Shown: in pieces, positions 1 through 12,847 of the stretch
Numbering within the stretch: the stretch's first letter is position 1
Layout: each line of letters begins with the position of its first letter
IMG/VR virus record: IMGVR_UViG_3300045988_150412
DNA length: 12,847 bases
Strand: one strand, 5' to 3'
Source of the DNA: a virus
Notes under the pieces: model-generated
Database searches by the model: none
What the model was told of the DNA's origin: nothing
The model's input: the letters and a program-made list of their open reading frames with translations, nothing else
Translations under genes and position numbers: made by a program

Positions 1-189
1 CTCCCCTCCCCCCCCCCTTTTCCAAACACGCATAATTAAAACAACTGTGCACATTTTTAGGATGATGGGTGTATATAAAACAGATGTGCATAGTTTTATG
101 ATAATGGGCGTGTATAATATGATTGTATATATTTTGGGTGTAAGTGTTTTTAATTAAACATTGGTTAGGCGTTGGGGTTGACACGGAAA
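1..189. repeat. Left inverted terminal repeat, 189 bp. Begins with 'CTCCC CTCCC' followed by a C10 homopolymer. Contains three iterated TGGGYGTRTA motifs. Its inner edge carries a TTGACA -35 hexamer.
   Basis: Reverse complement of 12659..12847 matches 1..189 exactly. Identity ends after 'ttgacacggaaa'. Confidence 0.95.
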
Positions 190-206
190 TTGAATGACGA
201 TATAAT
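178..206 (+). promoter_or_regulatory. Sigma-A type promoter, TTGACA-17-TATAAT. It drives the rightward structural and lysis operon.
   Basis: TTGACA at 178-183, a 17-nt spacer, then TATAAT at 201-206. The first ATG is at 224 or 236. The -35 lies inside the ITR and the -10 lies just outside it. Confidence 0.7.
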
Positions 207-427: not shown

Positions 428-1351
428 ATGGCGCGCAAGGATTATGATGTAGGAGCAGGAATGTTTTATCGATTAACAGATTTCACAGACAAACGTCAAC
501 GCGTCGCTGACTACATCATATACATGCTATCAAGAACAGCTCAGATGTTCGAGTATGACGGATTACCTGAAACTATTCCGCGTTTGAATTTAGAGCGTTT
601 AATACAAACGCATGGCCATGTCTGCGTTACAAATGTTAACGGTGAGTTATATGCTCTATTTGGAGGTTTAGGCGGAGAGCCTAGCCCTTATTACATGCCT
701 ACAATCTATACGGTTGCTAATCCGGCTTTAAATTATGACGCCAATTTAGTAATTGGACAAGATTGCGAAATCATTTACAATGATTCGATGTGGTACGGAT
801 TGATGCCCTTGTTCCGCAGGTATGCGTCGTTGCTCGTAGAAAATGACATATCCATGCGCATGGTCAACGTAAATTCCCGCGTGTCGATGCTTATTAAAAC
901 TCAATCGGAGCGCGAAGCATCGTCCGCTAGACAATTCTTATGCGACATAGAAGCCGGAAAGCAGGGTGTTTGCGCTGAAAGCTCTTTCGTGGAAGGTCTT
1001 AACACACTCCCCTATTCAACCCCGTCAAGCGGTCGAGATGTTACAAGTCTGATTGAATATCAACAATATTTAAAAGCGTCGTGGTTTAATGAGTTAGGGC
1101 TTAATGCTAACTACAATATGAAAAGAGAGGCGATTAATAGCGAAGAGGCGCAATTGAATGAGGACGCTTTATTACCCCTCGTTGATGATATGCTATCGTG
1201 TAGACAAGAGTGTTTGGATAAAGTTAACGCAATGTATGGAACCAATATTTCAGTTAAATTTAAATCTGCGTGGAAAATCAATAATGAAGAAATGAATGAA
1301 CCCGTTGAAGATGTAGAAATTAAGGAGGTGGAAAATGATGAAACTGATTGA
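428..1351 (+). CDS. Head-tail connector (portal) protein, phi29 gp10-like, 307 aa.
   Basis: Same length class as phi29 gp10 (309 aa). Recalled similarity: N-terminus MARK..., a Q(L/M)FE(W/Y)..LP.TI.P..LE..I block, and a C-terminal ...C..K(I/V)N..YG.N(V/I).VKF block. Strong RBS 'AAAGAGGTGGTG' upstream. Confidence 0.7.
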   Translation: MARKDYDVGAGMFYRLTDFTDKRQRVADYIIYMLSRTAQMFEYDGLPETIPRLNLERLIQTHGHVCVTNVNGELYALFGGLGGEPSPYYMPTIYTVANPALNYDANLVIGQDCEIIYNDSMWYGLMPLFRRYASLLVENDISMRMVNVNSRVSMLIKTQSEREASSARQFLCDIEAGKQGVCAESSFVEGLNTLPYSTPSSGRDVTSLIEYQQYLKASWFNELGLNANYNMKREAINSEEAQLNEDALLPLVDDMLSCRQECLDKVNAMYGTNISVKFKSAWKINNEEMNEPVEDVEIKEVENDETD

Positions 1352-3134
1352 TCTATTCCCGAACTGGTTGACAGGGGGCGGAATATTCGTTCTCTTTAAT
1401 AACCCCCCTTGGGTAGACGATGTAGAATCTTCGGCGCTCGATGTTGAATATTTCGGCAATCGTTCAGGCGAAAAGCTTATTGCTCCATTATTAAATAAAT
1501 TAATGGTTGATGACCAAATTTCTGATGCCAATCGGCAGAAACTTGTAAATGCTATCTGGGCTCGTTTCGGGAAAAATTGGACAAAATTGTATAATACTCT
1601 TAAAGAGGAATACAATCCGATTGAAAATTATAATATGACTGAGAAGGGTACATATACAGATACCGATACCGGGTCATTAGATCGTAGTGATAAAGTCGAA
1701 TATGGTAAAACGGTAAACAGCACCTCCGGGCAACAGTCTACTTCTCATGATCAATATTATGGTTTTAACGTATCCCAAGCCGGATCAGGCAAAAACACCA
1801 ACGGCACGGATGCGAACATAAGCGGACAGGGGTCTAATACTGAGGGTGGTCAGGATACAAAGACAGGTAGAGATACGCATACTTATAATAAAAGCGGGTC
1901 GACTACACACACCAGAAGCGGGAATATAGGCGTAACTACTACGCAACAGCTTATCGAATCTGAGCGTAATTTATGGCTCTGGAATTATTTTGACGCGGTA
2001 TTTTCTGACGTGGACACCATGCTTGTATTACAAGTGTTCGGTTTTGATTCGTGTTGTTACGAATACGCGCCCGGTTCCGGCGGTTCGTCTTATATCCTTC
2101 CTGTAGCTACAGCCACCACCTTGGGTGGTGTTAAATTACGCGGGGCGTCTTCGGTGGCAAATCATTACGCGGCAATCGACACTGACGGATACGTGAAATA
2201 CCAATATCCGGGCTTGGCTTCATACAGCAACTATGGCCTTGTTCGGCCGGTAAATAAAACCGGCAATATGTCACAGGCCGTTGGCGTTGACGAGTTCGGT
2301 CAGCTATTCACAGCTCCGAGCGGTGAATCTTACGTTCTCCCGGTGGCATCTCCAACCACCTTGGGCGGCGTGATGCCGGTCAATAAAACGTCGGCCATGT
2401 CTCAGCCGGTCGGCGTTGATGCTACAGGTCAGCTATTCACTGCTCCAAGCGGAGAATCTTACGTTCTCCCGGTGGCATCTTCAACCACCTTGGGAGGCGT
2501 GATGCCGGTCAATAAAACGTCGGCCATGTCTCAGCCGGTCGGCGTTGATGCTACAGGTCAGCTATTCACTGCTCCAAGCGGAGAATCTTACGTTCTCCCG
2601 GTGGCATCTTCAACCACCTTGGGAGGCGTGATGCCGGTCAATAAAACGTCGGCCATGTCTCAGCCGGTCGGCGTTGATGCTACAGGCCACTTATACACGG
2701 CTCCGGGCTCAGGCGTTGAAACGGCTCCGTTCTTATCGCAATCGGTTCACATTTCCGGGGTTCAAACAATCACAGAAACAAACGTTAATGTAGATTTAAA
2801 TATAGCTAACGTGTCTGGAAATTGGGATTATGTAGGATATGACGGCACAACTGCAGACATTGCGGACGATGAGCAAACATATGTTTCAGCGGTTCTTATA
2901 TGCTCTGGAGCTGGGAACACCGTGGTGCGTGTGGGAATTATTGACGGCACCAACACCGAGACCCCCTTGATTTCCGGGAATTTAGTTCACACGTCAAATA
3001 CAATTACTATTTTATCGGTTTCTGACATGCCTTTAAATTTAGCCCCCGGCGATTTCAGAGTACAAGTAAACACAGAGGATCAATTAAATGTGTTGATGGG
3101 CACGGTTACATTTAAGAAGAGAATTTTAAATTAG
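1335..3134 (+). CDS. Tail fiber / appendage (receptor-binding) protein, 599 aa, with 43-aa tandem repeats. The N-terminal ~150 aa may be a collar-attachment domain.
   Basis: Three near-identical 43-aa repeats 'SYVLPVAS(S/P)TTLGGVMPVNKTSAMSQPVGVDATGQLFTAPSGE', plus a degenerate upstream copy. The A(S/T)xxTLGGV pattern recalls phage tail-fibre repeat motifs. Ser/Thr/Gly/Asn-rich composition. Located directly after the connector gene. Confidence 0.55.
   Translation: MMKLIDLFPNWLTGGGIFVLFNNPPWVDDVESSALDVEYFGNRSGEKLIAPLLNKLMVDDQISDANRQKLVNAIWARFGKNWTKLYNTLKEEYNPIENYNMTEKGTYTDTDTGSLDRSDKVEYGKTVNSTSGQQSTSHDQYYGFNVSQAGSGKNTNGTDANISGQGSNTEGGQDTKTGRDTHTYNKSGSTTHTRSGNIGVTTTQQLIESERNLWLWNYFDAVFSDVDTMLVLQVFGFDSCCYEYAPGSGGSSYILPVATATTLGGVKLRGASSVANHYAAIDTDGYVKYQYPGLASYSNYGLVRPVNKTGNMSQAVGVDEFGQLFTAPSGESYVLPVASPTTLGGVMPVNKTSAMSQPVGVDATGQLFTAPSGESYVLPVASSTTLGGVMPVNKTSAMSQPVGVDATGQLFTAPSGESYVLPVASSTTLGGVMPVNKTSAMSQPVGVDATGHLYTAPGSGVETAPFLSQSVHISGVQTITETNVNVDLNIANVSGNWDYVGYDGTTADIADDEQTYVSAVLICSGAGNTVVRVGIIDGTNTETPLISGNLVHTSNTITILSVSDMPLNLAPGDFRVQVNTEDQLNVLMGTVTFKKRILN
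2322..2708 (+). repeat. Tandem direct repeat, 129-bp unit in 3 copies. Copies 2 and 3 are essentially identical. It sits inside the fiber gene.
   Basis: 'gaatcttacgttctcccggtggcatc...' recurs at 2325, 2454 and 2583, giving a period of 129 nt (43 codons, in frame). Confidence 0.9.
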
Positions 3135-3147
3135 GGAGAGAATTAAA

Positions 3148-4323
3148 ATGAACGTACAGCAAATTTACACAATTATCAACACTGTAACAAATGAGGAATT
3201 AGGTTTATCCGAAGTGGTGCAGGAGGATTTAAGCAACATTGTAGATGTAGGCACGGCGGTTTTTAATGCCAACGCCCTCGACAATTATGTAAAATCCCTT
3301 GTCGATCACATAGGCCGCGTGGTCTTCGTCAACCGTCCCTATCGCGGTTCCGCCCCATCTGTAATTATGGATGGTTGGGAATACGGTAGCGTCTTAGAAA
3401 AAATCACGTGCGATCTTCCGGAAGCAACGGAAAATGAAAGCTGGGAGCTGACCAACGGTCAATCTTACGATCCTAATGTATTTTATAAACCTACAGTTTC
3501 CGCAAAATTCTATAATAAGCGAGTCACATTTGAAATTCCTATGTCCTTCACTGAAAGACAGGTTAAGGAATCGTTTAGTAGCGCTGAACAGCTTAATGCC
3601 TTCATGTCTATGCTCTATACGGCTATTGAGAACAGCATGACCGTTAAACTTGACGGTCTTGTAATGCGTACAATTAATAATATGATTGGTGAAACATTCA
3701 ACGCTGATTTCACGGGTCAATCCGCTGGCAAGTTTGGAAATAACAGTACCATGCGTTGCGTCAACTTACTTTTCCTTTATAATCAGACCGTTGCAACTAA
3801 GTTAACCTCTGAAAACTGTTTAAGTGATCCTAGTTTCATTCGATTCGCGGCGGCTTTGATGCAGAAATATGTTTATAGATTAGGTAAACTTTCTACCTTA
3901 TTCAATGTAGGTAAAAAAGAGAGATTCACCCCGAAAGACAGATTGCATTTCATTCTTCTTGCTGATTTTATGACCAACGCAGATGTTTATTTACAATCTA
4001 ACACTTTCCACAATGAATTTACCGCACTTCCTAACGCAGAGCTCGTACCCTTCTGGCAAGGCTCCGGCCTCAGTTACGACATGGGCGAGATTTCTGAAAT
4101 CAACATTAAAACCGGCTCTGGTACGATCATTAATCCTACAGGCATTCTTGGTGTGATGTTCGACCGTGACGCTTTAGGCGTGACAAATATGAATCGGCGA
4201 GTTACTTCTAATTATAATCCCAAAGCTGAGTTTTTCAACAATTGGTATAAAATGGACGCTGGTTATTTCAATGATTTAAATGAAAACTTCGTCGTTTGGT
4301 ACGTCGCGGATTCTCAAGCTTAA
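3148..4323 (+). CDS. Putative major capsid protein, 391 aa.
   Basis: Inferred from size and its position in the virion operon. A GC-rich hairpin lies immediately downstream, typical of a highly expressed capsid gene. No other ORF is a plausible capsid candidate. I recognise no sequence motif, so the call is by exclusion. Confidence 0.45.
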   Translation: MNVQQIYTIINTVTNEELGLSEVVQEDLSNIVDVGTAVFNANALDNYVKSLVDHIGRVVFVNRPYRGSAPSVIMDGWEYGSVLEKITCDLPEATENESWELTNGQSYDPNVFYKPTVSAKFYNKRVTFEIPMSFTERQVKESFSSAEQLNAFMSMLYTAIENSMTVKLDGLVMRTINNMIGETFNADFTGQSAGKFGNNSTMRCVNLLFLYNQTVATKLTSENCLSDPSFIRFAAALMQKYVYRLGKLSTLFNVGKKERFTPKDRLHFILLADFMTNADVYLQSNTFHNEFTALPNAELVPFWQGSGLSYDMGEISEINIKTGSGTIINPTGILGVMFDRDALGVTNMNRRVTSNYNPKAEFFNNWYKMDAGYFNDLNENFVVWYVADSQA

Positions 4324-4336
4324 AATTAACCATTTT

Positions 4337-4371
4337 CCCCGCCGTGGCCTTCTCCTTTCTCCACGGCGGGG
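4337..4371 (+). other. GC-rich RNA hairpin with an 11-bp stem and a 13-nt loop, and no U-tract. Candidate attenuator or mRNA-stabilising structure after the capsid gene.
   Basis: 'ccccgccgtgg' at 4337-4347 pairs with 'ccacggcgggg' at 4361-4371. There is no T-run on either side. Confidence 0.5.
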
Positions 4372-4395
4372 AAACATTGAATTGAGGAATTAATT

Positions 4396-4857
4396 ATGGA
4401 CATAACATTATATGCGTCAAACGAAGCGCCAGAATTTGTGACGAAAGCATTAAACAATATTACGACTGTTAGCGGGCAGGCAAACATGCCCCTAGACATA
4501 CTTAACCCTGTTGTTGATCTTGATTTAAGCACCTTAGGAGCTGAGCCGGTAAGCACATATGGCATTAATTATGCATATATTGCGGAATTTAAAAGATATT
4601 ACTTCATCAATAGATTTGAAATTTTAGCTACAGGAATATATAGATTATATTTACATGTAGATGTTTTAATGTCGTATCGCAACGATATTTTGAATAATAT
4701 TGGAATTATACGCAGGCAACAGAATTTATACGACCTGTATTTAAATGATGGGTCATTAAAAGTTGAAAATTATCCAATGTTACAAACTCTTGTTTTTAGT
4801 AACGGGAACATATTTGACAATTGGAAATATATCGTCACCGTTGCCGGAGGTGCTTAA
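4396..4857 (+). CDS. Hypothetical virion protein, 153 aa. Possibly a collar, scaffold or minor tail component.
   Basis: ORF with RBS 'GAGGAA' upstream. It lies in the structural operon between the capsid and tail-knob genes. No recognisable motif. Confidence 0.5.
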   Translation: MDITLYASNEAPEFVTKALNNITTVSGQANMPLDILNPVVDLDLSTLGAEPVSTYGINYAYIAEFKRYYFINRFEILATGIYRLYLHVDVLMSYRNDILNNIGIIRRQQNLYDLYLNDGSLKVENYPMLQTLVFSNGNIFDNWKYIVTVAGGA

Positions 4858-4858
4858 T

Positions 4859-6607
4859 ATGCCAGCTTTTATAACTACAGATATAGGCCGAAAATACTTT
4901 TTCGGCCGAAGATATAACGGAGATGATCAACTATCAACGCCGATATCAGTGCCGCCAGGCAATACTTCAAAAGAAAAATATAGAGCTTCAACATTTCAAC
5001 TCGACACCTCTAAGTTAGATATTCCTGACCCTCCAAATTTTTCCTCTGTTCATATAACTGAAAAATACAGCGGCTTTAAATATGGTTTAAAAGGCGGGGG
5101 TTATTTGCAGTTTGGACTACACAGCGAATATGACCCTTCTAGCACGCGCGGACACTTTACATCATGGGTAAAATGGGCTGTTTTTGATTCTGACGATACG
5201 ATCGTAGGTAGTCACATAATGGGCGTCGCGCGCTCTAATGATATTTGGGCGAAGACAATTGAATTAGTTAAAAAAGATTCATACGCATTATTATTCGTGT
5301 ATAATACTCAAGCCTCGTCTGAATACGGTGGCACCTACAGCTTTGTGGAATTTGATGCAACAAATACTTCTGGCGATTGGGGAACTGAGTTACAAAACAA
5401 ATTCGATAAATTCATAAGCGGCAGAACCAACCCCCAGGGTGAGGTGTTGGGAATCGCTATTAACGATCTGATTATTAAATGCTTCGGAAAAGCTCTGTAT
5501 TTCCGGGCTAACGCGAAAGACACCGGCGGTACCGGTTCAGATAATCAAGTAGGTGGCGGATCGAGTAACCCCACCGGAAACGGCGGCAACACCGGCTTTG
5601 GAGGTGACAGTAAGCCGCAGGGCGGCGGTTCAACTCTCGATTATAAAACCGACATGATTTCTAAAACTCCAAACACCCCCCCATACGCTCAACAGGCCAT
5701 ATCTTCCGGATTCGTGACAACGTATGTGATGAGCGCGTCTAATATGCGAAGTTTAGCGTCATATATGTGGTCAAAGAGCTTCTTGGATAATATACCTAAG
5801 CTTTTACAAAATCCCATGGAAGCATTAATATCAGTGAACCTATCGCCTCTGAACCCACCACACGGAAGCGATATTCAGAAGGTCAAGCTTGGCACACTTA
5901 CAAGTGATGCCAACGGATTTTTACTTGCAAATCAATACGGCACATTTAATTTAGGATCAATAAATTTAGGTGAATACTGGGCGAATTATCTTGACTATGC
6001 ACCATATACGGAGGTAAGCATATTCTTACCATATATAGGGACATTTGATCTTAATGTTGATGACGTCATGAACAGCGTTCTTTCTCTTCAATATGTGGTA
6101 GATTTCTTGAGCGGCACTTGTGTTGCGAGTTTGACCGTACAACGAGGCCAATTAAACAGCGTACTCTATCAATGGGGGGGAAACATATTTACAACCGTAC
6201 CAGCTACAGGGGCAGATTATACAGGTCAGTTAACAGCATTAATTAGCGGGGTAACGGCGACCGCCGGATCACTATTGACCGGAAACGCCGGAACCGTGGC
6301 CACTACAGCAGTCAATGCGGCGGTTTCTACCTTAACCACTAAGAGGCATGTATTAAGAGGTTCCGGAATGACCAAGAACGCCGGTACGCTGGGTGTAGCT
6401 CAACCGTATCTTGTTGTTTCGCGCCCAGTTCAATCTATGCCTTTTAATATGTGGTGTGATAAGGGCTTTCCTTCAAATATCGGCAGACCTCTTTCAGAGC
6501 TTAGCGGTTATACTGAAATTGATTATATTCATTTACAAGGAATCCAAGCAACTCAAGATGAAATTAATGAAATATATGGATTGTTGAATAAGGGGGTCAT
6601 TTTCTGA
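4859..6607 (+). CDS. Tail knob / distal tail tube protein candidate (phi29 gp9-like role), ~582 aa from ATG 4859. Has a Gly-rich linker and a long hydrophobic Ala/Thr/Gly loop.
   Basis: The ORF-track start at 4763 overlaps the upstream gene. The in-frame ATG at 4859 has RBS 'GGAGGTG' and follows the upstream stop. Gly-rich low-complexity segment at about 5515-5635. A ~45-aa hydrophobic segment at about 6213-6345 resembles the membrane-inserting loop of the phi29 tail knob. Size is similar to gp9 (599 aa). Confidence 0.4.
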   Translation: MPAFITTDIGRKYFFGRRYNGDDQLSTPISVPPGNTSKEKYRASTFQLDTSKLDIPDPPNFSSVHITEKYSGFKYGLKGGGYLQFGLHSEYDPSSTRGHFTSWVKWAVFDSDDTIVGSHIMGVARSNDIWAKTIELVKKDSYALLFVYNTQASSEYGGTYSFVEFDATNTSGDWGTELQNKFDKFISGRTNPQGEVLGIAINDLIIKCFGKALYFRANAKDTGGTGSDNQVGGGSSNPTGNGGNTGFGGDSKPQGGGSTLDYKTDMISKTPNTPPYAQQAISSGFVTTYVMSASNMRSLASYMWSKSFLDNIPKLLQNPMEALISVNLSPLNPPHGSDIQKVKLGTLTSDANGFLLANQYGTFNLGSINLGEYWANYLDYAPYTEVSIFLPYIGTFDLNVDDVMNSVLSLQYVVDFLSGTCVASLTVQRGQLNSVLYQWGGNIFTTVPATGADYTGQLTALISGVTATAGSLLTGNAGTVATTAVNAAVSTLTTKRHVLRGSGMTKNAGTLGVAQPYLVVSRPVQSMPFNMWCDKGFPSNIGRPLSELSGYTEIDYIHLQGIQATQDEINEIYGLLNKGVIF

Positions 6608-7377
6608 TGAATATCATCGAATCTTTTTTAACTAAAAACGATTGTTATAAACAAGGAAAAAAGCTAAAACTTGAGGGCTTAATGCTCCACTCAGTCGCAT
6701 GCCCTCAGCCCAAGGCTTCGGTCTTCGTTAAAAGCTGGAACCGCTCCGGCATTAAGAAGTGTGTTCATGCGTTTATTGATGCGAAAAATGGATATGTGTA
6801 TCAAACATTGCCTTGGCTAATGCGAGGCTGGCACGGTGGAAAGAAGTACAGCAACGATCATTATATTGGCGTTGAGATGTGTGAACCTTCATGCATTGAA
6901 TACACTGGAGGATCAACTTTTAAAATGAAAGATCCCGCTCAAGCTCTGGCTCAAATTAAAAACGCTTATAATTCAGCCGTGGAGCTATTTGCGTTTTTAT
7001 GTTTGAAATATAATTTAAAACCTAGCTCAATTTGTTCTCATCGCGAAGGTCATGCCAAAGGTATCGCGAGTGATCACGGCGACCCGGAACACCTATGGAG
7101 GTGTTCCGGCTTCGGAAAAACAATGACCGACTTTCGCGCAGATGTGGCGCGTGAGATCCAACAACAAAAGGGAGGTGATGAAGTGACGCAAGAGGATTTC
7201 AATAAAATGATGAATACTTATTTAGAAGAACGCTCGAAAGAACCAAAATCCGATTGGGTCAACGCTAACGACGCCGCAGGCATCATGCATGGCGACGCAG
7301 ACGGCGCCATGCGCTGGCGTTCCTTTGTGACGCGCGAAGAAGCTGTTACTATGATCGCGCGCGCGATCAAAAAATAA
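6607..7377 (+). CDS. Endolysin: N-acetylmuramoyl-L-alanine amidase (Amidase_2/PGRP fold) with an SLH-like C-terminal motif, 256 aa.
   Basis: N-terminus 'MNIIESF...' parallels B. subtilis XlyA 'MVNIIQDF'. Zn-ligand-type H...H...C spacing (HSVAC, GWHGG, HREGH). C-terminus 'GIMHGDADGAMRWRSFVTREEAVTMIARA' resembles an S-layer-homology half-repeat. TGATG overlap with the upstream stop. Confidence 0.8.
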   Translation: MNIIESFLTKNDCYKQGKKLKLEGLMLHSVACPQPKASVFVKSWNRSGIKKCVHAFIDAKNGYVYQTLPWLMRGWHGGKKYSNDHYIGVEMCEPSCIEYTGGSTFKMKDPAQALAQIKNAYNSAVELFAFLCLKYNLKPSSICSHREGHAKGIASDHGDPEHLWRCSGFGKTMTDFRADVAREIQQQKGGDEVTQEDFNKMMNTYLEERSKEPKSDWVNANDAAGIMHGDADGAMRWRSFVTREEAVTMIARAIKK

Positions 7378-7405
7378 GAGAGGTTTAAACCTCTCTTATT
7401 TTTTT
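7376..7405. terminator. Bidirectional rho-independent terminator between the two convergent operons.
   Basis: Perfect 22-nt palindrome 'aagagaggtttaaacctctctt' at 7376-7397. It is flanked by an A-run upstream (7369-7375) and a T-run downstream (7398-7405), so it reads as stem plus U-tract on both strands. Confidence 0.8.
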
Positions 7406-8490
7406 GATCCGCACCATATGACGTAATTTCTCACAAGATCACCGACTTCGTTGTCTTGGTAGAAAATCTTATCATTAGAAAACAGCGCATGAATCTTTTT
7501 TTCAATTTTAGTTACCGGTCTTAAAATTGATCGTCTCCAATTGGGGCGCGGATCATAATCCGGGCTGTATATGAGGTCACCATCAGGATCTTTCAATTCG
7601 GTTGTTTTTCTATGAATATATATAAATGTACTCTCTTCCACATTGACACACTCACATTGAAGCATTTCGTCGTTAAATAATATGAAAAAGGTGAAATCTA
7701 CGTTTACAGGTGTATACTTGATAGGGCAATGAGGATAAATATCAAGCTCCCAAACACCTGTTTTTATCATTTGCAATTTAGGATTATCAAATGCAAAATA
7801 AGTATCTGAAGCTTTACCACCTTGCCCCGCCGCGGTAGCGCAATATTCAACGGCGACACGAAGATCAGAAGATCCGTATGTGTATAGGTCAATGTCTCCG
7901 GGCTTCATTTGTTTAACGTGTGTTAGCCCCATTTCTGAAAAATAGGGGCAATATTGGTTAACCGTATTGCCGCACATGAAAATCTTCACGTTGCTTCTGT
8001 GCCGAATAATCGTGCTTAAACAATTCATGAATAGCACGAACTCATCTGGAAGATACGCGCGTCGTGTCAAAAATTCATCGAATAAAACAGTTGTAATATT
8101 TGGGAATGACGAACTTTTGTCATGTTCCATTGAAGAAATTGAAAACCCGAAAGCAAAGGGGTCTTCGTCCCTTATTACATTCTTCGGATCGTCAGGATCT
8201 TTAAATTGGAGCCACCAACGTCCCGAATAATAATAAACGCTGTTCCATGCGCCATTTGTCAGCCGCTCCACAGCTCCCGTTTCAATGTGGCCGTCAAAGA
8301 GAGATGCGCCGCGTTTACCTTTCAAGTCATCCTGCCATCTTCTTATTATTGCCGTTTGTTCGTGATACTTGGAGTACCGATCTAATGCGTATTCAAGAAC
8401 GGCGTAGGTCTTGCCGTTCGATCTTTCACCAAAGATCATATTATATTGAGCTTTTTTGCTCAATATCTTTTTTAGTCTGTAAAATTTCAT
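7396..8490 (-). CDS. DNA packaging (encapsidation) ATPase, phi29 gp16-like, 364 aa.
   Basis: Walker A 'GERSNGKTYA' at residues 21-30, matching phi29 gp16 'GARGIGKSYA'. Walker B block 'NITTVLFDEFLTRR' matches 'NVSTIVFDEFIREK'. 'VKIFMCGNTVNQYCPYF' matches 'VRCICLSNAVSVVNPYF'. RBS 'AGGGGT'. Overlaps the polymerase 3' end by 50 nt. Confidence 0.8.
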   Translation of the reverse strand: MKFYRLKKILSKKAQYNMIFGERSNGKTYAVLEYALDRYSKYHEQTAIIRRWQDDLKGKRGASLFDGHIETGAVERLTNGAWNSVYYYSGRWWLQFKDPDDPKNVIRDEDPFAFGFSISSMEHDKSSSFPNITTVLFDEFLTRRAYLPDEFVLFMNCLSTIIRHRSNVKIFMCGNTVNQYCPYFSEMGLTHVKQMKPGDIDLYTYGSSDLRVAVEYCATAAGQGGKASDTYFAFDNPKLQMIKTGVWELDIYPHCPIKYTPVNVDFTFFILFNDEMLQCECVNVEESTFIYIHRKTTELKDPDGDLIYSPDYDPRPNWRRSILRPVTKIEKKIHALFSNDKIFYQDNEVGDLVRNYVIWCGSKK

Positions 8491-10603
8491 TTATACCCCT
8501 TTTTAAATAATCTTTAAACTCGCGCGCAAATGTCATGTCATAAGACGCACCGGAAAGATGCACACTGCTGTACTCATGATAATACCCCTCATTGCCGGCA
8601 TAATCAACAACATGTCCCTCCTGCTCGCGGTCAATATAAGTATGTATATTCTTCCCCGTTGCTTCTTCAGGGAAAAAAAGCCCCTCTTTAAATAGATCGA
8701 ACGGATCGCGATCTTTCGACAATAGCCAAGGCACGGCTTTTTTCTTATTAACGCCAGATACTGTGATAGATAATTCACCGTCAATTTCAGTCATATACCT
8801 TTTAGCCCCCAAGGTTTTAAACCTTGTATACGTACCTTCATATTCCCACACACCCAAAGGCTTGGACTGGCCTTTAATGGTTCGGGGCGCGGCTTTCGTC
8901 TCGTCTATTTTATGATATTTTAACGCATTTTTTACACGCTTTTGTATATCGGCATTATATCGTTCAAAATAATCCATATGCTTTTCCGCGTTTATAAATT
9001 TAACTGAATCCGTATCGCTGTAAACATAATCTTGACCTAATTCGTATATCGCGGAAAAGAGGTTCCGGCGCGCGTATGCCGTTACCCACACCCCCCAAAG
9101 GTAAGACAAGAACCTGCCTTTTGAGTTGTTGTATTTTTCTATTTCCTCTGAAACATCGGCGCTCTTCCTGCACCAGCCATTCACATTATAGATATTTTCA
9201 TCTCGGCAAATGTCTGTTACACACATGCCGTAAGCAGAATTTATATCTTGCTTTGCTAGCAAATAATCCAATTCCGAACCTTCCACCCCCTTGAGTGTGG
9301 TTTTTGATTCGTACAATGTTATAATTTCGTTCACAAAATCAGTCGGTAAATGCCCCCTGCGATATACAAACATCATCCCCACAGCCATGTGTTCCCATTG
9401 GTAGAATTTTTCTAATGTGAAAAAATCTTGTTCAGTTAAAGATGTGTAGACCGTATCAGCCCACACCACACGACCGTTATTGATCTGTCGCGATCCCTCT
9501 ATTTTACATTTCGACGCTGAAAGTGGATTGTCGTGCCAAAGGCGCGGTGTCAAGCCTTCAAACTTAATATTAAACATGCAACAGTATTTTTTCAAATACC
9601 GCCTAAATTCTAACTTATTTTCAGGTTCCACCCTTTGACCCTTTGACATGGGGAAAAGTTCGGACACCATAACCGTTGGATATGATGACGCAAGATCATA
9701 TGACGCAACATCATTGACCGTGACCCCCACATATTTATAATGCGCATGAGTGAATCCGCCTTGAAATGCGGATTTCGCGAGCTCATACTCTTCAGGCTCT
9801 AATGTTAACCTGCTCATTAATTTATGATTGTTCAACCATTTATAAGGCGAATCCTTAGTCTGCCGGGTGCAGGCACGCCTAAACCTGCGGCGCACATATC
9901 CGGTTTTAGTTAGCGGAATCTTCCAAATATATCCACCTTCGGTTTGCATTTTTTCGTAAATACCTGCTTGTACTATTTGAATATCTCTGATGCAATACCC
10001 GATTTCTTTATCGGTCAGTATTGTGTCGGAATGTCTGACTTTTGAATAATCGAGATCCCCGGTCAGCTTCTCCATTTTAACGTGTGTGAAATGTTTACTC
10101 CAATCATCCAGAGAGTATCCTGTCAAAATGTATGAGCAACGGAACTCTACACCGTCCACCGTGCGGGCTTTAATCGGTTTTCGATCATCAAGAGCGAAGA
10201 CATTAGCCCACTCAAATCGTTGACAAATAAACTGAAATTCGTAACTTAAATTATGCACGTATACAACCATTCTAAAAGTGTCGCCAAGATTGAACATCCG
10301 AACCAAACGGCTTATTAAAATGTCGAATTGCTCCCAAGTTCGGCCGTAGATGTTCACGCCGCTTATACCAAACTGCCATACGTACATAAACGCGACCTTT
10401 TCACCGCCTAACGTGTATGTGCTTGTTGTCTCAATGTCAAAAGCCGCGGGCGCGTTCAACCAGCAGACCTTTTTTGTGTCTTTAGAAAATCCCAAATTTA
10501 GAGATTTTATGCGATCTATGAAGATATTCAATTGATTAAAACTGTAAACCTCAGTCAAGAGGTTTGAAGAAGTCGCTAACTGATGCCCGATCTGCATAGC
10601 CAT
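8441..10603 (-). CDS. Protein-primed family-B DNA polymerase with 3'-5' exonuclease, ~720 aa.
   Basis: Exo I 'FDIETTS'. Exo II 'YVHNLSYEF'. Exo III 'YCIRDIQI'. Motif A 'YDLASSYPT' (Dx2SxYP). Motif B 'KQDINSAYG' (Kx3NSxYG). Motif C 'YVYSDTDS'. KxY 'GAKRYM'. The track start at 10606 is GTG, and the first ATG is at 10603. Its 5' end overlaps the upstream ORF. Confidence 0.95.
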   Translation of the reverse strand: MAMQIGHQLATSSNLLTEVYSFNQLNIFIDRIKSLNLGFSKDTKKVCWLNAPAAFDIETTSTYTLGGEKVAFMYVWQFGISGVNIYGRTWEQFDILISRLVRMFNLGDTFRMVVYVHNLSYEFQFICQRFEWANVFALDDRKPIKARTVDGVEFRCSYILTGYSLDDWSKHFTHVKMEKLTGDLDYSKVRHSDTILTDKEIGYCIRDIQIVQAGIYEKMQTEGGYIWKIPLTKTGYVRRRFRRACTRQTKDSPYKWLNNHKLMSRLTLEPEEYELAKSAFQGGFTHAHYKYVGVTVNDVASYDLASSYPTVMVSELFPMSKGQRVEPENKLEFRRYLKKYCCMFNIKFEGLTPRLWHDNPLSASKCKIEGSRQINNGRVVWADTVYTSLTEQDFFTLEKFYQWEHMAVGMMFVYRRGHLPTDFVNEIITLYESKTTLKGVEGSELDYLLAKQDINSAYGMCVTDICRDENIYNVNGWCRKSADVSEEIEKYNNSKGRFLSYLWGVWVTAYARRNLFSAIYELGQDYVYSDTDSVKFINAEKHMDYFERYNADIQKRVKNALKYHKIDETKAAPRTIKGQSKPLGVWEYEGTYTRFKTLGAKRYMTEIDGELSITVSGVNKKKAVPWLLSKDRDPFDLFKEGLFFPEEATGKNIHTYIDREQEGHVVDYAGNEGYYHEYSSVHLSGASYDMTFAREFKDYLKRGINEILQTKKDIEQKSSI

Positions 10604-11126
10604 CACTCAAACTTTCGTATATTTGTTTAACGTAATCCATCACGTCAACATTTTCCAAATCTTCTATTTCACGCAGTTCAGTTTGGAGTTGAGAAGATCC
10701 GTAATCTTTATTTAACTCAACCCCCATTTCAGATTCAATTTTTCGGTACAAATCCCAGTAAGCTTTAGCGCGCGCAAGCTTGTTTTCCTCTGATCCGGAT
10801 ATAGCGCCGGCTGTTTCTTGAACGAACTTCTTATAAGACTTAGCGCCGGCCACTGATGCGGTTTCCTTAGACGCGAACGATTGTATACGATTCAATTCCC
10901 GCAATAATTCATTGCGGTTTTTTCCGCGCGTTCCGAAGTGCGCCCCTCCGCTTCTTTCAAGCCCCTTAACGGCGGGCGCGTAATCAGCATATTTTCCTAA
11001 ATTTTTTATGCGCTTGTTTAGAGGTGCAGCTCCCACTTGAACAACTTTCGCGAGCTCGGCGCGGCTAAGCTTTGAAGCCTGTTCCATATTTAGATTTAAC
11101 ACATCCGCAAGATTCTGAATCCTCAT
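10551..11126 (-). CDS. Candidate terminal (priming) protein, 191 aa from ATG 11126. The track begins it at GTG 11135.
   Basis: Lies immediately upstream of the polymerase and overlaps it, as phi29 gene 3 does with gene 2. Basic, HTH-like N-terminus (LSRAELAKVV, KRIKNLGK) and an acidic Ser/Asp-rich C-terminus. No other ORF of terminal-protein size sits next to the polymerase. Confidence 0.4.
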   Translation of the reverse strand: MRIQNLADVLNLNMEQASKLSRAELAKVVQVGAAPLNKRIKNLGKYADYAPAVKGLERSGGAHFGTRGKNRNELLRELNRIQSFASKETASVAGAKSYKKFVQETAGAISGSEENKLARAKAYWDLYRKIESEMGVELNKDYGSSQLQTELREIEDLENVDVMDYVKQIYESLSDGYADRASVSDFFKPLD

Positions 11127-11310
11127 CTTGAACACCCCACTTATCGATGTATATAAACGCCATAGACGACCTTGGTGTTAAACCCCGTTCAGCTCGGGAT
11201 AATGCCGCGACCGTCACTTTATACTCATAACTTAACTCAGATAAAGAGAGACCCGCATTTCTGCGGGCTTCTCTGCATTTACTCCAAAATTCTGGCGAAC
11301 GTTTAACCAT
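11065..11310 (-). CDS. Small HTH DNA-binding protein, sigma-70 region-4-like, 81 aa. Putative transcriptional regulator.
   Basis: 'AGLSLSELSYEYKVTVAALSRAERG' fits the sigma region 4 / LuxR-type HTH pattern (GLS..EIA...G.S..TV...L.RA). TAATG overlap with the upstream gene. Overlaps the downstream terminal-protein candidate by ~60-70 nt in another frame. Confidence 0.5.
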   Translation of the reverse strand: MVKRSPEFWSKCREARRNAGLSLSELSYEYKVTVAALSRAERGLTPRSSMAFIYIDKWGVQDEDSESCGCVKSKYGTGFKA

Positions 11311-12563: not shown

Positions 12564-12588
12564 GATTAACATCTCCTTTCTATATTAT

Positions 12589-12618
12589 ATTATATCACGA
12601 AAAACAACACTTTTGCAA
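12589..12618 (-). promoter_or_regulatory. Leftward promoter for the replication and early operon: TTGCAA, an 18-nt spacer, then an extended -10 TGaTATAAT.
   Basis: On the minus strand, TTGCAA at 12613-12618, an 18-nt spacer, 'TGa' at 12595-12597 and TATAAT at 12589-12594. The RBS and 49-aa ORF start about 25 nt downstream. Confidence 0.5.
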
Positions 12619-12632
12619 TACTTTTTGCAATG
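12608..12632. promoter_or_regulatory. Tandem 11-12-bp direct repeat 'cttttgcaata' / 'ctttttgcaatg'. Each copy contains the palindromic TTGCAA. Candidate operator that overlaps the -35 of the leftward promoter.
   Basis: Direct reading of 12608-12632. Confidence 0.4.
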
Positions 12633-12658
12633 TTTTTTATGTGTTATTTATATGTACT

Positions 12659-12847
12659 TTTCCGTGTCAACCCCAACGCCTAACCAATGTTTAATTAAAA
12701 ACACTTACACCCAAAATATATACAATCATATTATACACGCCCATTATCATAAAACTATGCACATCTGTTTTATATACACCCATCATCCTAAAAATGTGCA
12801 CAGTTGTTTTAATTATGCGTGTTTGGAAAAGGGGGGGGGGAGGGGAG
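12659..12847. repeat. Right inverted terminal repeat, 189 bp, a mirror copy of 1..189.
   Basis: Direct comparison of the window end with the reverse complement of the window start. The terminal 'ggggggggggaggggag' mirrors the 5' 'ctcccctcccccccccc'. Confidence 0.95.

Follow-up and report, generated by a model that had tools for sequence, protein, structure and literature searches.

The linear phage genome held as IMG/VR virus record IMGVR_UViG_3300045988_150412 (12,847 bp; termed here the window, that is, the whole stretch of DNA that was analyzed) raises the question of why the gene for a DNA packaging ATPase should lie among replication genes, directly downstream of and overlapping the gene for a DNA polymerase, on the strand opposite to the structural genes. 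An initial annotation had assigned the 364-residue product to the family of gp16, the encapsidation ATPase of phage phi29, and had proposed that its linkage to the polymerase and to a terminal protein candidate may reflect recognition of terminal protein-capped DNA by the ATPase. The explanation developed here, which as a whole is very probably correct, is that the protein is a gp16-type motor whose gene occupies an inherited position next to the polymerase gene, that inversion of the structural block left this gene at the tail of the replication string, that the overlap stems from loss of a stop codon, and that the ATPase gene is expressed by transcriptional read-through.

The 364-residue protein is of orthologue grade within the gp16 family of packaging ATPases, which belong to the ASCE class (additional strand, conserved glutamate). 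It matched Pfam family PF05894 (Podovirus_Gp16) with 70.5 bits, compared to a gathering cut-off of 25, and the PHROG family phrog_2150 (‘terminase’) at 2.5e-32. The best matches among solved structures were phi29 gp16 (5HD9, 2e-17; 7JQQ, 1e-16) and phi28 gp11 (7JQ6). The PF05894 domain was present in all 120 ATPase homologues among the matches listed. The Walker A motif (GxxxxGK[ST]) reads G21-ERSNGK27-T28 and aligns with G24-K30-S31 of phi29 gp16, and the Walker B motif (hhhhDE) reads V135-LFD138-E139 and aligns with D118-E119. An alignment (A1) of the window ATPase with the proteins of phi29, Cp-1 and P68, two Astrithrvirus-type proteins and two metagenomic proteins revealed invariant columns at R23, G26, K27, K125, D138, E139, R163 and N175. 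By residue count, the phi29 equivalents of K27, K125, D138/E139, R163 and N175 are K30, K105, D118/E119, R146 and N158, respectively. Residues K105 and R146 are trans-acting in phi29 and were described as candidates for the arginine finger in the structure of the motor (PMC8104870), and K125 and R163 are their predicted equivalents in the window protein. The motifs for which alignment with gp16 had been recommended, namely Walker A, Walker B and counterparts of the arginine finger, were all present. Catalysis is predicted to involve K27 of Walker A, D138 and E139 of Walker B, and K125 and R163 acting in trans. By homology, the protein would form a ring motor at the portal vertex that pumps unit-length, terminal protein-capped DNA into proheads; the inverted terminal repeats, the PF03175 polymerase and the terminal protein candidate assigned by position are in keeping with such a substrate.

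Structural comparison gave the same assignment. An AlphaFold2 model of the ATPase was produced with 42 homologues and had a mean predicted local distance difference test score (pLDDT) of 78.9. When this model was used as a Foldseek query, phi28 gp11 (7JQ6) was the first match (E 1.9e-14; ~405 aligned columns), followed by full-length phi29 gp16 (7JQQ; 7e-11; 381 columns) and by the N-terminal domain in 5HD9 (template modeling score normalized to the target, 0.72). Large terminases of P74-26, D6E and Sf6 appeared only after the gp16 and gp11 structures, and no replication-initiator fold was among the Foldseek matches of the model. The model predicts a two-domain fold, an N-terminal ATPase domain followed by a small C-terminal domain, that resembles the solved gp16 and gp11 structures. 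Overall, the Pfam, PHROG, structure database and Foldseek results agree with the family assignment made initially. Membership of another ATPase family, such as the replication initiators, was looked for; instead the protein groups with gp16 and gp11, and the terminases come next.

Homologues of the ATPase number >7,000 in public data at E ≤ 1e-5, and many are encoded on contigs of 12–13 kb. Gene order was compared across the window and 112 related loci drawn from IMG/VR, a Logan assembly, genome bins and three records of isolate phages. The colinear layout typical of Astrithrvirus was found at 70 loci and the convergent layout of the window at 31, the window included. At three loci (L019, L020 and L111) the ATPase gene is flipped onto the structural strand, where it is last in the operon and converges on the polymerase gene as in the phi29-like arrangement, and nine loci were left without a layout class. 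The ATPases of the three flipped loci are 58–60% identical to that of the window; L020, in which the gene is located at 7784–8887, is complete and carries 55-bp inverted terminal repeats. Relatives with 51–70% ATPase identity therefore exhibit three gene orientations or contexts, the phi29-like one among them. In neighbor-joining trees of the ATPase and of the major capsid protein, convergent and flipped genomes formed one clade without colinear members, and the flipped genomes nested inside this clade.

The position of the ATPase gene next to the polymerase gene is inherited. The colinear layout is suggested to be ancestral and the convergent layout derived. The ancestor would have had the order terminal protein, polymerase, ATPase, structural genes, and one inversion that extended from the gene for a small membrane protein to the endolysin gene would have generated the window type, with the ATPase gene left at the tail of the replication string. 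A single inversion matches the window because the endolysin gene abuts the ATPase gene, and the 67-residue protein and connector genes are at the far end. The phi29-like type would have come from a subsequent flip restricted to the ATPase gene. Within one clade the ATPase gene thus sits in the replication string, leads the structural string, or closes the structural string, and these three positions argue against a strict positional or temporal constraint on ATPase expression. The comparison of synteny that had been advised as a check confirmed that adjacency of polymerase and ATPase genes is real, but the layout is not special: it recurs in phage phiZP2 and at 30 further metagenomic loci, P68 has it with the order of the two genes swapped, and an ATPase gene placed right after the polymerase gene is the common state in the Astrithrvirus-like clade.

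Gene order might nevertheless be adaptive: both expression and translation of the ATPase would be coupled to those of the terminal protein and polymerase because the motor must recognize terminal protein-capped products of replication. The ATPase gene adjoins the polymerase gene in the Astrithrvirus-like clade, in the Guelinviridae (phiZP2) and in the Rountreeviridae (P68), and the two genes physically overlap in the window, which is consistent with this proposal. However, the three flipped loci have the ATPase gene on the structural strand, convergent with that for the polymerase, and phi29, Cp-1, Curtobacterium phage Ayka and Bifidobacterium phage BadAargau2 keep it among the late genes. Moreover, in colinear relatives the ATPase gene can just as well be counted as the head of the structural block, and the overlap is unique to the immediate lineage of the window, where it differs (35 vs. 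50 nucleotides, nt) between relatives that are 97% identical. As relatives carry the ATPase gene in three orientations or contexts, linkage to the polymerase gene is not a functional requirement. The phi29 packaging motor acts on terminal protein-linked DNA although gene 16 is a late gene, and gene position is therefore uninformative about recognition of the substrate. The proposal that the position reflects recognition of terminal protein-capped DNA is unsupported, because the gp16 family serves terminal protein-capped genomes at any gene position. An adaptive gene order accordingly is improbable, and an inherited position that was modified by inversion is preferred.

The overlap between the polymerase and ATPase genes was assessed next to its relatives. 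Both the 50-nt overlap and the placement of the ATPase ribosome binding site within the polymerase coding sequence were as first described; a Shine-Dalgarno-like hexamer, AAGGGG, precedes the ATPase ATG by 5 nt (Table 1). Purine-rich stretches, AAGGAG and AGAGGTG, likewise precede the ATPase ATG in the relatives L087 and L088. The ATG at 8490 is the true start because the N-terminus aligns both with phi29 gp16 (residues 3–57 with residues 6–60 of the 7JQQ chain) and with 80 IMG/VR relatives: the segment (K/Q)(F/Y)Y..L..IL.K.A.YN.I.GERSNGKT was kept in 80 of 80.

The overlap might instead be an artefact if a frameshift error had entered the polymerase gene at its end during sequencing or assembly, or if the true ATPase start were M18, the ATG at 8439. 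This ATG is located just 1 nt past the TAA stop codon of the polymerase gene (8443–8441), a spacing that is typical of termination-reinitiation junctions. However, initiation at this position would delete the conserved N-terminal segment, as residues 1–17, which line up with residues 6–20 of phi29 gp16, are preserved in every relative, and no Shine-Dalgarno sequence comparable to that upstream of 8490 was seen before the ATG at 8439. The identical ATPase and the same 50-nt overlap recur in L090 (European Nucleotide Archive ERZ27296286) and L091 (SRR1930136), which are independent assemblies of other samples, so the overlap is not an assembly error; a 35-nt version also is present in two further runs (L088 and L089). 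An artefactual origin thus is extremely improbable.

Comparison with close relatives indicates instead how a genuine overlap arose. The C-terminal tail of the polymerase, NEILQTKKDIEQKSSI, is an out-of-frame reading of the N-terminal codons of the ATPase. In L087, a convergent genome that is a 70% relative, the polymerase gene closes with ...EFLKDKGVI-TAA, 1 nt before the ATPase ATG. Out-of-frame reading past this stop codon yields NEILQPQKDSEQKCAI, which is essentially the tail of the window polymerase (NEILQTKKDIEQKSSI). Compared to L087, the window has an indel just before the ATPase ATG; therefore, the TAA now belongs to the reading frame of the ATPase, and that of the polymerase stays open up to a chance TAA 50 nt further on. 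The indel displaced the polymerase frame relative to its ancestral stop codon, so that the polymerase now reads through the first 16 ATPase codons in another frame. The overlap is 35 nt in L088 and L089, 97% relatives that came from two other runs, owing to a substitution that introduced a stop codon. Junction lengths were tallied at 105 loci with the polymerase and ATPase genes on the same strand. An overlap of at least 20 nt was found at one locus, the window only, compared to overlaps of 8 nt at eight loci, 4 nt at 31 and 1 nt at three; a gap separates the genes at the remaining 62. As judged from these alignments, the 50-nt overlap is a recent and neutral-looking by-product of a lost stop codon that is specific to the immediate lineage of the window. 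The polymerase tail is an unconstrained read-through and not a conserved coupling device, because L087 stops before the ATG and L088 and L089 overlap by 35 nt. Overlaps of similar length are common in such compact genomes, as exemplified by polymerase/orf6 of Cp-1 (44 nt) and gene 3/gene 4 of phi29 (112 nt).

The overlap also holds a 9-bp hairpin (8443–8466) adjoined by an A_AAA_AAG heptamer, and a second hairpin follows M18; the fold of the junction has a z score of −3.7. A role for the hairpin as a signal for translational coupling or frameshifting was rejected as the stem is degraded in a 97% relative and absent in L087. A −1 shift at A_AAA_AAG would yield a short peptide only.

How the ATPase gene is expressed can be gauged from the layout of the minus strand. 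The genes on this strand abut or overlap from ~12570 to 7396; apart from the bidirectional element shared with the opposing string, no strong terminator is evident. The simplest reading is that the genes for the terminal protein candidate, the polymerase and the ATPase are co-transcribed, because the packed string leaves no room for a terminator. The ATPase mRNA most likely is the distal part of a transcript that originates at the right-end promoter and reaches the gene by read-through. With the last place in the string at a distance of ~5 kb from the promoter, ATPase expression would be the latest and probably the lowest in its string. Translation would start independently at the Shine-Dalgarno sequence of the gene while ribosomes that are finishing the polymerase pass over the site. 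A bolder version, which is very doubtful, is that loss of the spacer tied the motor gene obligatorily to the distal end of the early terminal protein-polymerase transcript and entangled it with translation of the polymerase. Entanglement could proceed by ribosome occlusion, by coupling across the overlap, or by a +1 shift on the A-rich run to give a polymerase-ATPase fusion. If this were true, phages of ~12 kb would couple the supply of replication and packaging proteins without the early/late switch of phi29.

Several observations weigh against the explanation as a whole. First, two sequences towards the 3′ end of the polymerase gene (8607–8579 and 8536–8507, minus strand) match the sigma-70 consensus at 9/12 positions and would permit an internal promoter. 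Packaging enzymes are required only at late stages of infection, and the ATPase gene might be transcribed mainly from its own promoter at the 3′ end of the polymerase gene, thereby behaving as a late gene on the replication strand. However, matches of 9/12 belong to a class that is abundant by chance (47 observed vs. 31.6 ± 5.5 expected in the consensus scan), no intergenic space is available, and the short polymerase-ATPase spacer of relatives consists of a ribosome binding site and, in some, a parS palindrome, with no promoter-sized element. Internal promoters inside the polymerase gene were rejected as too weak and near background. Transcription from a dedicated promoter therefore is unlikely, and read-through from the right end is favored. 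Second, the proposal that the convergent layout derives from the colinear one relies on midpoint-rooted neighbor-joining trees, and the midpoint-rooted tree of the polymerase did not recover the convergent clade, which is why the ATPase and major capsid protein trees only were used. Third, the terminal protein is a candidate assigned by position only, and the linker between the two domains of the ATPase model (residues 220–251) is of low confidence. Finally, the phi29 motor needs a prohead RNA (pRNA) as a hallmark cofactor, and no counterpart was found in the window. A whole-window Rfam scan (E ≤ 1) detected no pRNA family, with two weak and unrelated matches only. A promoter-like site (12566–12593, plus strand) faces the right terminus and the non-coding right end (12598–12847), and folding of the possible outward transcript from this end showed no excess structure compared to shuffled sequences (z = −0.72). 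Phi29 and the Bacillus phages related to it are the only phages known to have a pRNA (PMC11476376).

Table 1. Features of the window, from left to right.
Feature	Coordinates	Strand	Basis or remark
Left inverted terminal repeat	1..189	.	100% complementary to 12659-12847
Predicted promoter, TTGACA-17-TATAAT	178..206	+	12/12 in sigma-70 consensus scan; head of structural string
Small protein, 67 residues	224-427	+	ORF map
Connector	428-1351	+	Identical protein in L090 carries PF05352
Repeat-containing protein, 599 residues	1335-3134	+	ORF between connector and major capsid protein
Major capsid protein	3148-4323	+	PF25622 Phi29_MCP
Two tail proteins	between major capsid protein and endolysin	+	ORF map, family matches
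Endolysin (Amidase_2)	6607..7377	+	PF01510 1.4e-14; phrog_1794 3.2e-33; last structural/lysis gene, converges on ATPase gene
Predicted bidirectional intrinsic terminator, common to both convergent strings	7369..7404	.	Perfect 18+18 nt palindrome AAAAAATAAGAGAGGTTT/AAACCTCTCTTATTTTTT
gp16-type DNA encapsidation (packaging) ATPase, 364 residues, ATG start	7396..8490	-	Pfam, PHROG, PDB, Foldseek
Overlap of polymerase 3′ end and ATPase 5′ end, 50 nt	8441..8490	-	ORF coordinates
Protein-primed family B DNA polymerase	8441..10606	-	PF03175 DNA_pol_B_2 49 bits; phrog_1907 2.4e-62
Shine-Dalgarno-like AAGGGG	8496..8501	-	5 nt upstream of ATPase ATG, inside polymerase coding sequence
Terminal protein candidate, 191-194 residues	10551..11135	-	By position; directly upstream of polymerase
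Helix-turn-helix protein, 81 residues, plus several small ORFs	minus-strand string	-	ORF map
Predicted promoter-like site, TTGCAA-18-TATAAT, upstream TG (extended -10)	12589..12618	-	10/12 in consensus scan; head of minus-strand string
Right inverted terminal repeat	12659..12847	.	Pairs with 1-189

The features of the window are collected in Table 1. A search for inverted repeats revealed a perfectly matched 189-bp inverted terminal repeat at each end, and the window therefore is a complete linear genome. It is the genome of an uncultivated phi29-like podophage of which Astrithrvirus is a distant relation. The map of open reading frames (ORFs) resolves two convergent gene strings, with the structural and lysis genes on the plus strand and the small early genes and those for the terminal protein candidate, polymerase and ATPase on the minus strand; this confirms that the ATPase gene is opposed to the structural genes. 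The cumulative GC skew changes sign at ~7000–7500, in line with the switch of strands. Each terminal repeat opens with a C-rich run, CTCCCCTCCCCCCCCCCTTTTCC, and contains a 39-bp tandem repeat (2.1 copies; 37–117). The promoter at the left end straddles the inner end of the terminal repeat, with the −35 hexamer inside the repeat and the −10 hexamer just outside.

The terminator between the two strings has an RNA fold of −34 kcal/mol (z = −7.85) with A and T runs on its flanks. The palindrome contains both TAA stop codons and the Lys-Lys codons of both C-termini. The stop codons of the two convergent genes abut the terminator stem, and the U-tract in each direction is the complement of the Lys-Lys codons of the other gene (AAAAAA; …GSKK*, …AIKK*).

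The inverted terminal repeats in combination with a PF03175 polymerase imply protein priming. The polymerase comprises 718–721 residues depending on the start codon, which is GTG at 10606 (721 residues) or ATG at 10603 or 10597; the 718-residue form was chosen by gene callers on L090. Its translation includes DIETTS, NLSYEF, DLASSYP, KQDINSAYG and YSDTDS, which were interpreted as motifs Exo I/II and Pol A/B/C. The terminal protein candidate had no family match in Pfam and PHROG searches, and weak homologues with 26–39% identity are encoded at the same position in relatives. Gene 3 of phi29 and orf4 of Cp-1 similarly are located directly upstream of the polymerase gene. Other same-strand overlaps are evident in this string: the terminal protein candidate and polymerase genes overlap by 47–56 nt (10551–10606) and the helix-turn-helix protein and terminal protein candidate genes by 62–71 nt (11065–11135), depending on start codons, and the overlap of terminal protein and polymerase genes in L087 is 41 nt.

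On the plus strand, the ORF for the 599-residue protein includes a 129-nt tandem repeat (2298–2704; 3.2 copies, 96% identity) that encodes a 43-residue unit, SGESYVLPVAS.TTLGGVMPVNKTSAMSQPVGVDATGQLFTAP. The GC content rises to 0.52 across this region. L090, an otherwise near-identical assembly, has 2.2 copies and a 556-residue protein, and the copy number of the repeat therefore differs between strains.

Inspection of the related loci also disclosed an exact 16-bp palindrome, TGTTTCACGTGAAACA, at 33 of 122 loci with up to five copies per ~12.8-kb genome. The palindrome is the canonical chromosomal parS centromere that is bound by ParB/Spo0J according to the literature. Copies are positioned directly after stop codons at module junctions, that is, in the polymerase-ATPase spacer, past the ATPase stop codon, and near both genome ends. 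The sites are at 180, 1293, 4235, 5578 and 12722 in L005, and at 5202 and 10328 in L092 (phiZP2), of which that at 5202 is in the polymerase-ATPase spacer. The window has no copy of TGTTTCACGTGAAACA, even with three mismatches allowed. The candidate role of the palindrome as a late promoter or operator for separate transcription of the ATPase gene was rejected, because it is a canonical parS site and is absent from the window. In phi29, five parS sites help to trap the genome in spores (PMC2731898). A literature search yielded no report of parS for the Guelinviridae or for gut phages related to the window. It could be speculated that palindromic parS copies serve as break points for inversion, and parS at the module junctions of relatives may be more interesting than the placement of the ATPase gene.

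Loci L095–L122 are whole phage genomes of 12–14 kb that were binned in metagenome-assembled genomes (MAGs) from the gut. The labels of these MAGs include Acutalibacteraceae (five times), Clostridia, Oscillospiraceae, Bacteroidales, Spirochaetia, Bifidobacteriaceae and others. Assignment of a host from the bins was rejected: whole phage contigs in MAGs of inconsistent taxa probably are binning artefacts.

The locus neatly illustrates how modules invert in the smallest tailed phages and matters little as a discovery. Its practical value concerns annotation: in this very large and mostly uncultivated group of gut-associated phages, the ATPase start and the polymerase end should be called with the overlap in mind.

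Among known phages, the closest cultured relatives are members of Astrithrvirus and similar phages of Gram-negative hosts (Salmonella phages astrithr, Astrid and assan, Acinetobacter phage Phanie and Pectobacterium phage DU_PP_III; also Entb_47). Identity of Astrithrvirus-type proteins to those of the window is 50–53% for the ATPase, ~46% for the polymerase, ~55–58% for the major capsid protein and ~40% for the connector. These phages also have tiny genomes (11–12 kb) with terminal repeats and the order gp02, polymerase, ATPase, with a 4-nt ATGA overlap at the polymerase stop codon. The core gene set of the genus is shared with the window (ATPase, polymerase, major capsid protein, connector, and g67 and g153 homologues; 27–58% identity), whereas nucleotide similarity is below the level of the genus, as megablast of the whole window gave one 154-nt match at 76%. 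All genes of the Astrithrvirus type are on one strand, in the order gp01, gp02, polymerase, ATPase, small membrane protein, connector, major capsid protein, tail genes, endolysin, and the window differs from astrithr, Astrid and Phanie in that the structural block is inverted.

The layout most like that of the window is present in Clostridium phage phiZP2 (Guelinviridae, Brucesealvirus; NC_018084), in which gp08 (hypothetical) is followed by the polymerase (3013–5196) and Gp16 ATPase (5235–6278) genes. As in the window, the structural and lysis genes follow directly on the opposite strand and converge on the ATPase gene, and the linear genome has inverted terminal repeats. Unlike the window, phiZP2 has an 18-kb genome, an ATPase with ~24% identity to the window protein, and a 38-nt polymerase-ATPase spacer that contains the parS palindrome instead of an overlap. 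In the Staphylococcus phages P68 and 44AHJD (Rountreeviridae), the ATPase gene also adjoins the polymerase gene on the early strand with the structural genes opposite and convergent, but the order in P68 is reversed (ORF9 ATPase, then ORF10 polymerase) with a 33-nt gap, and the P68 ATPase is 20% identical to that of the window in alignment A1. Bacillus phage phi29 (Salasmaviridae) has in common with the window the protein family and the catalytic residues of gp16 as well as a bidirectional terminator directly after the ATPase gene; the window ATPase has an insertion of ~30 residues after the RRW motif compared to gp16. Gene 16 is last in the late operon on the structural strand of phi29, as the initial annotation had stated and the phi29 annotation shows, unlike the ATPase gene of the window. 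A 2024 review noted that frequent rearrangements accompany the evolution of phi29-like phages (PMC11476376). The layout of the window is not new, but is an ordinary and already documented variant of the phi29-like organization.

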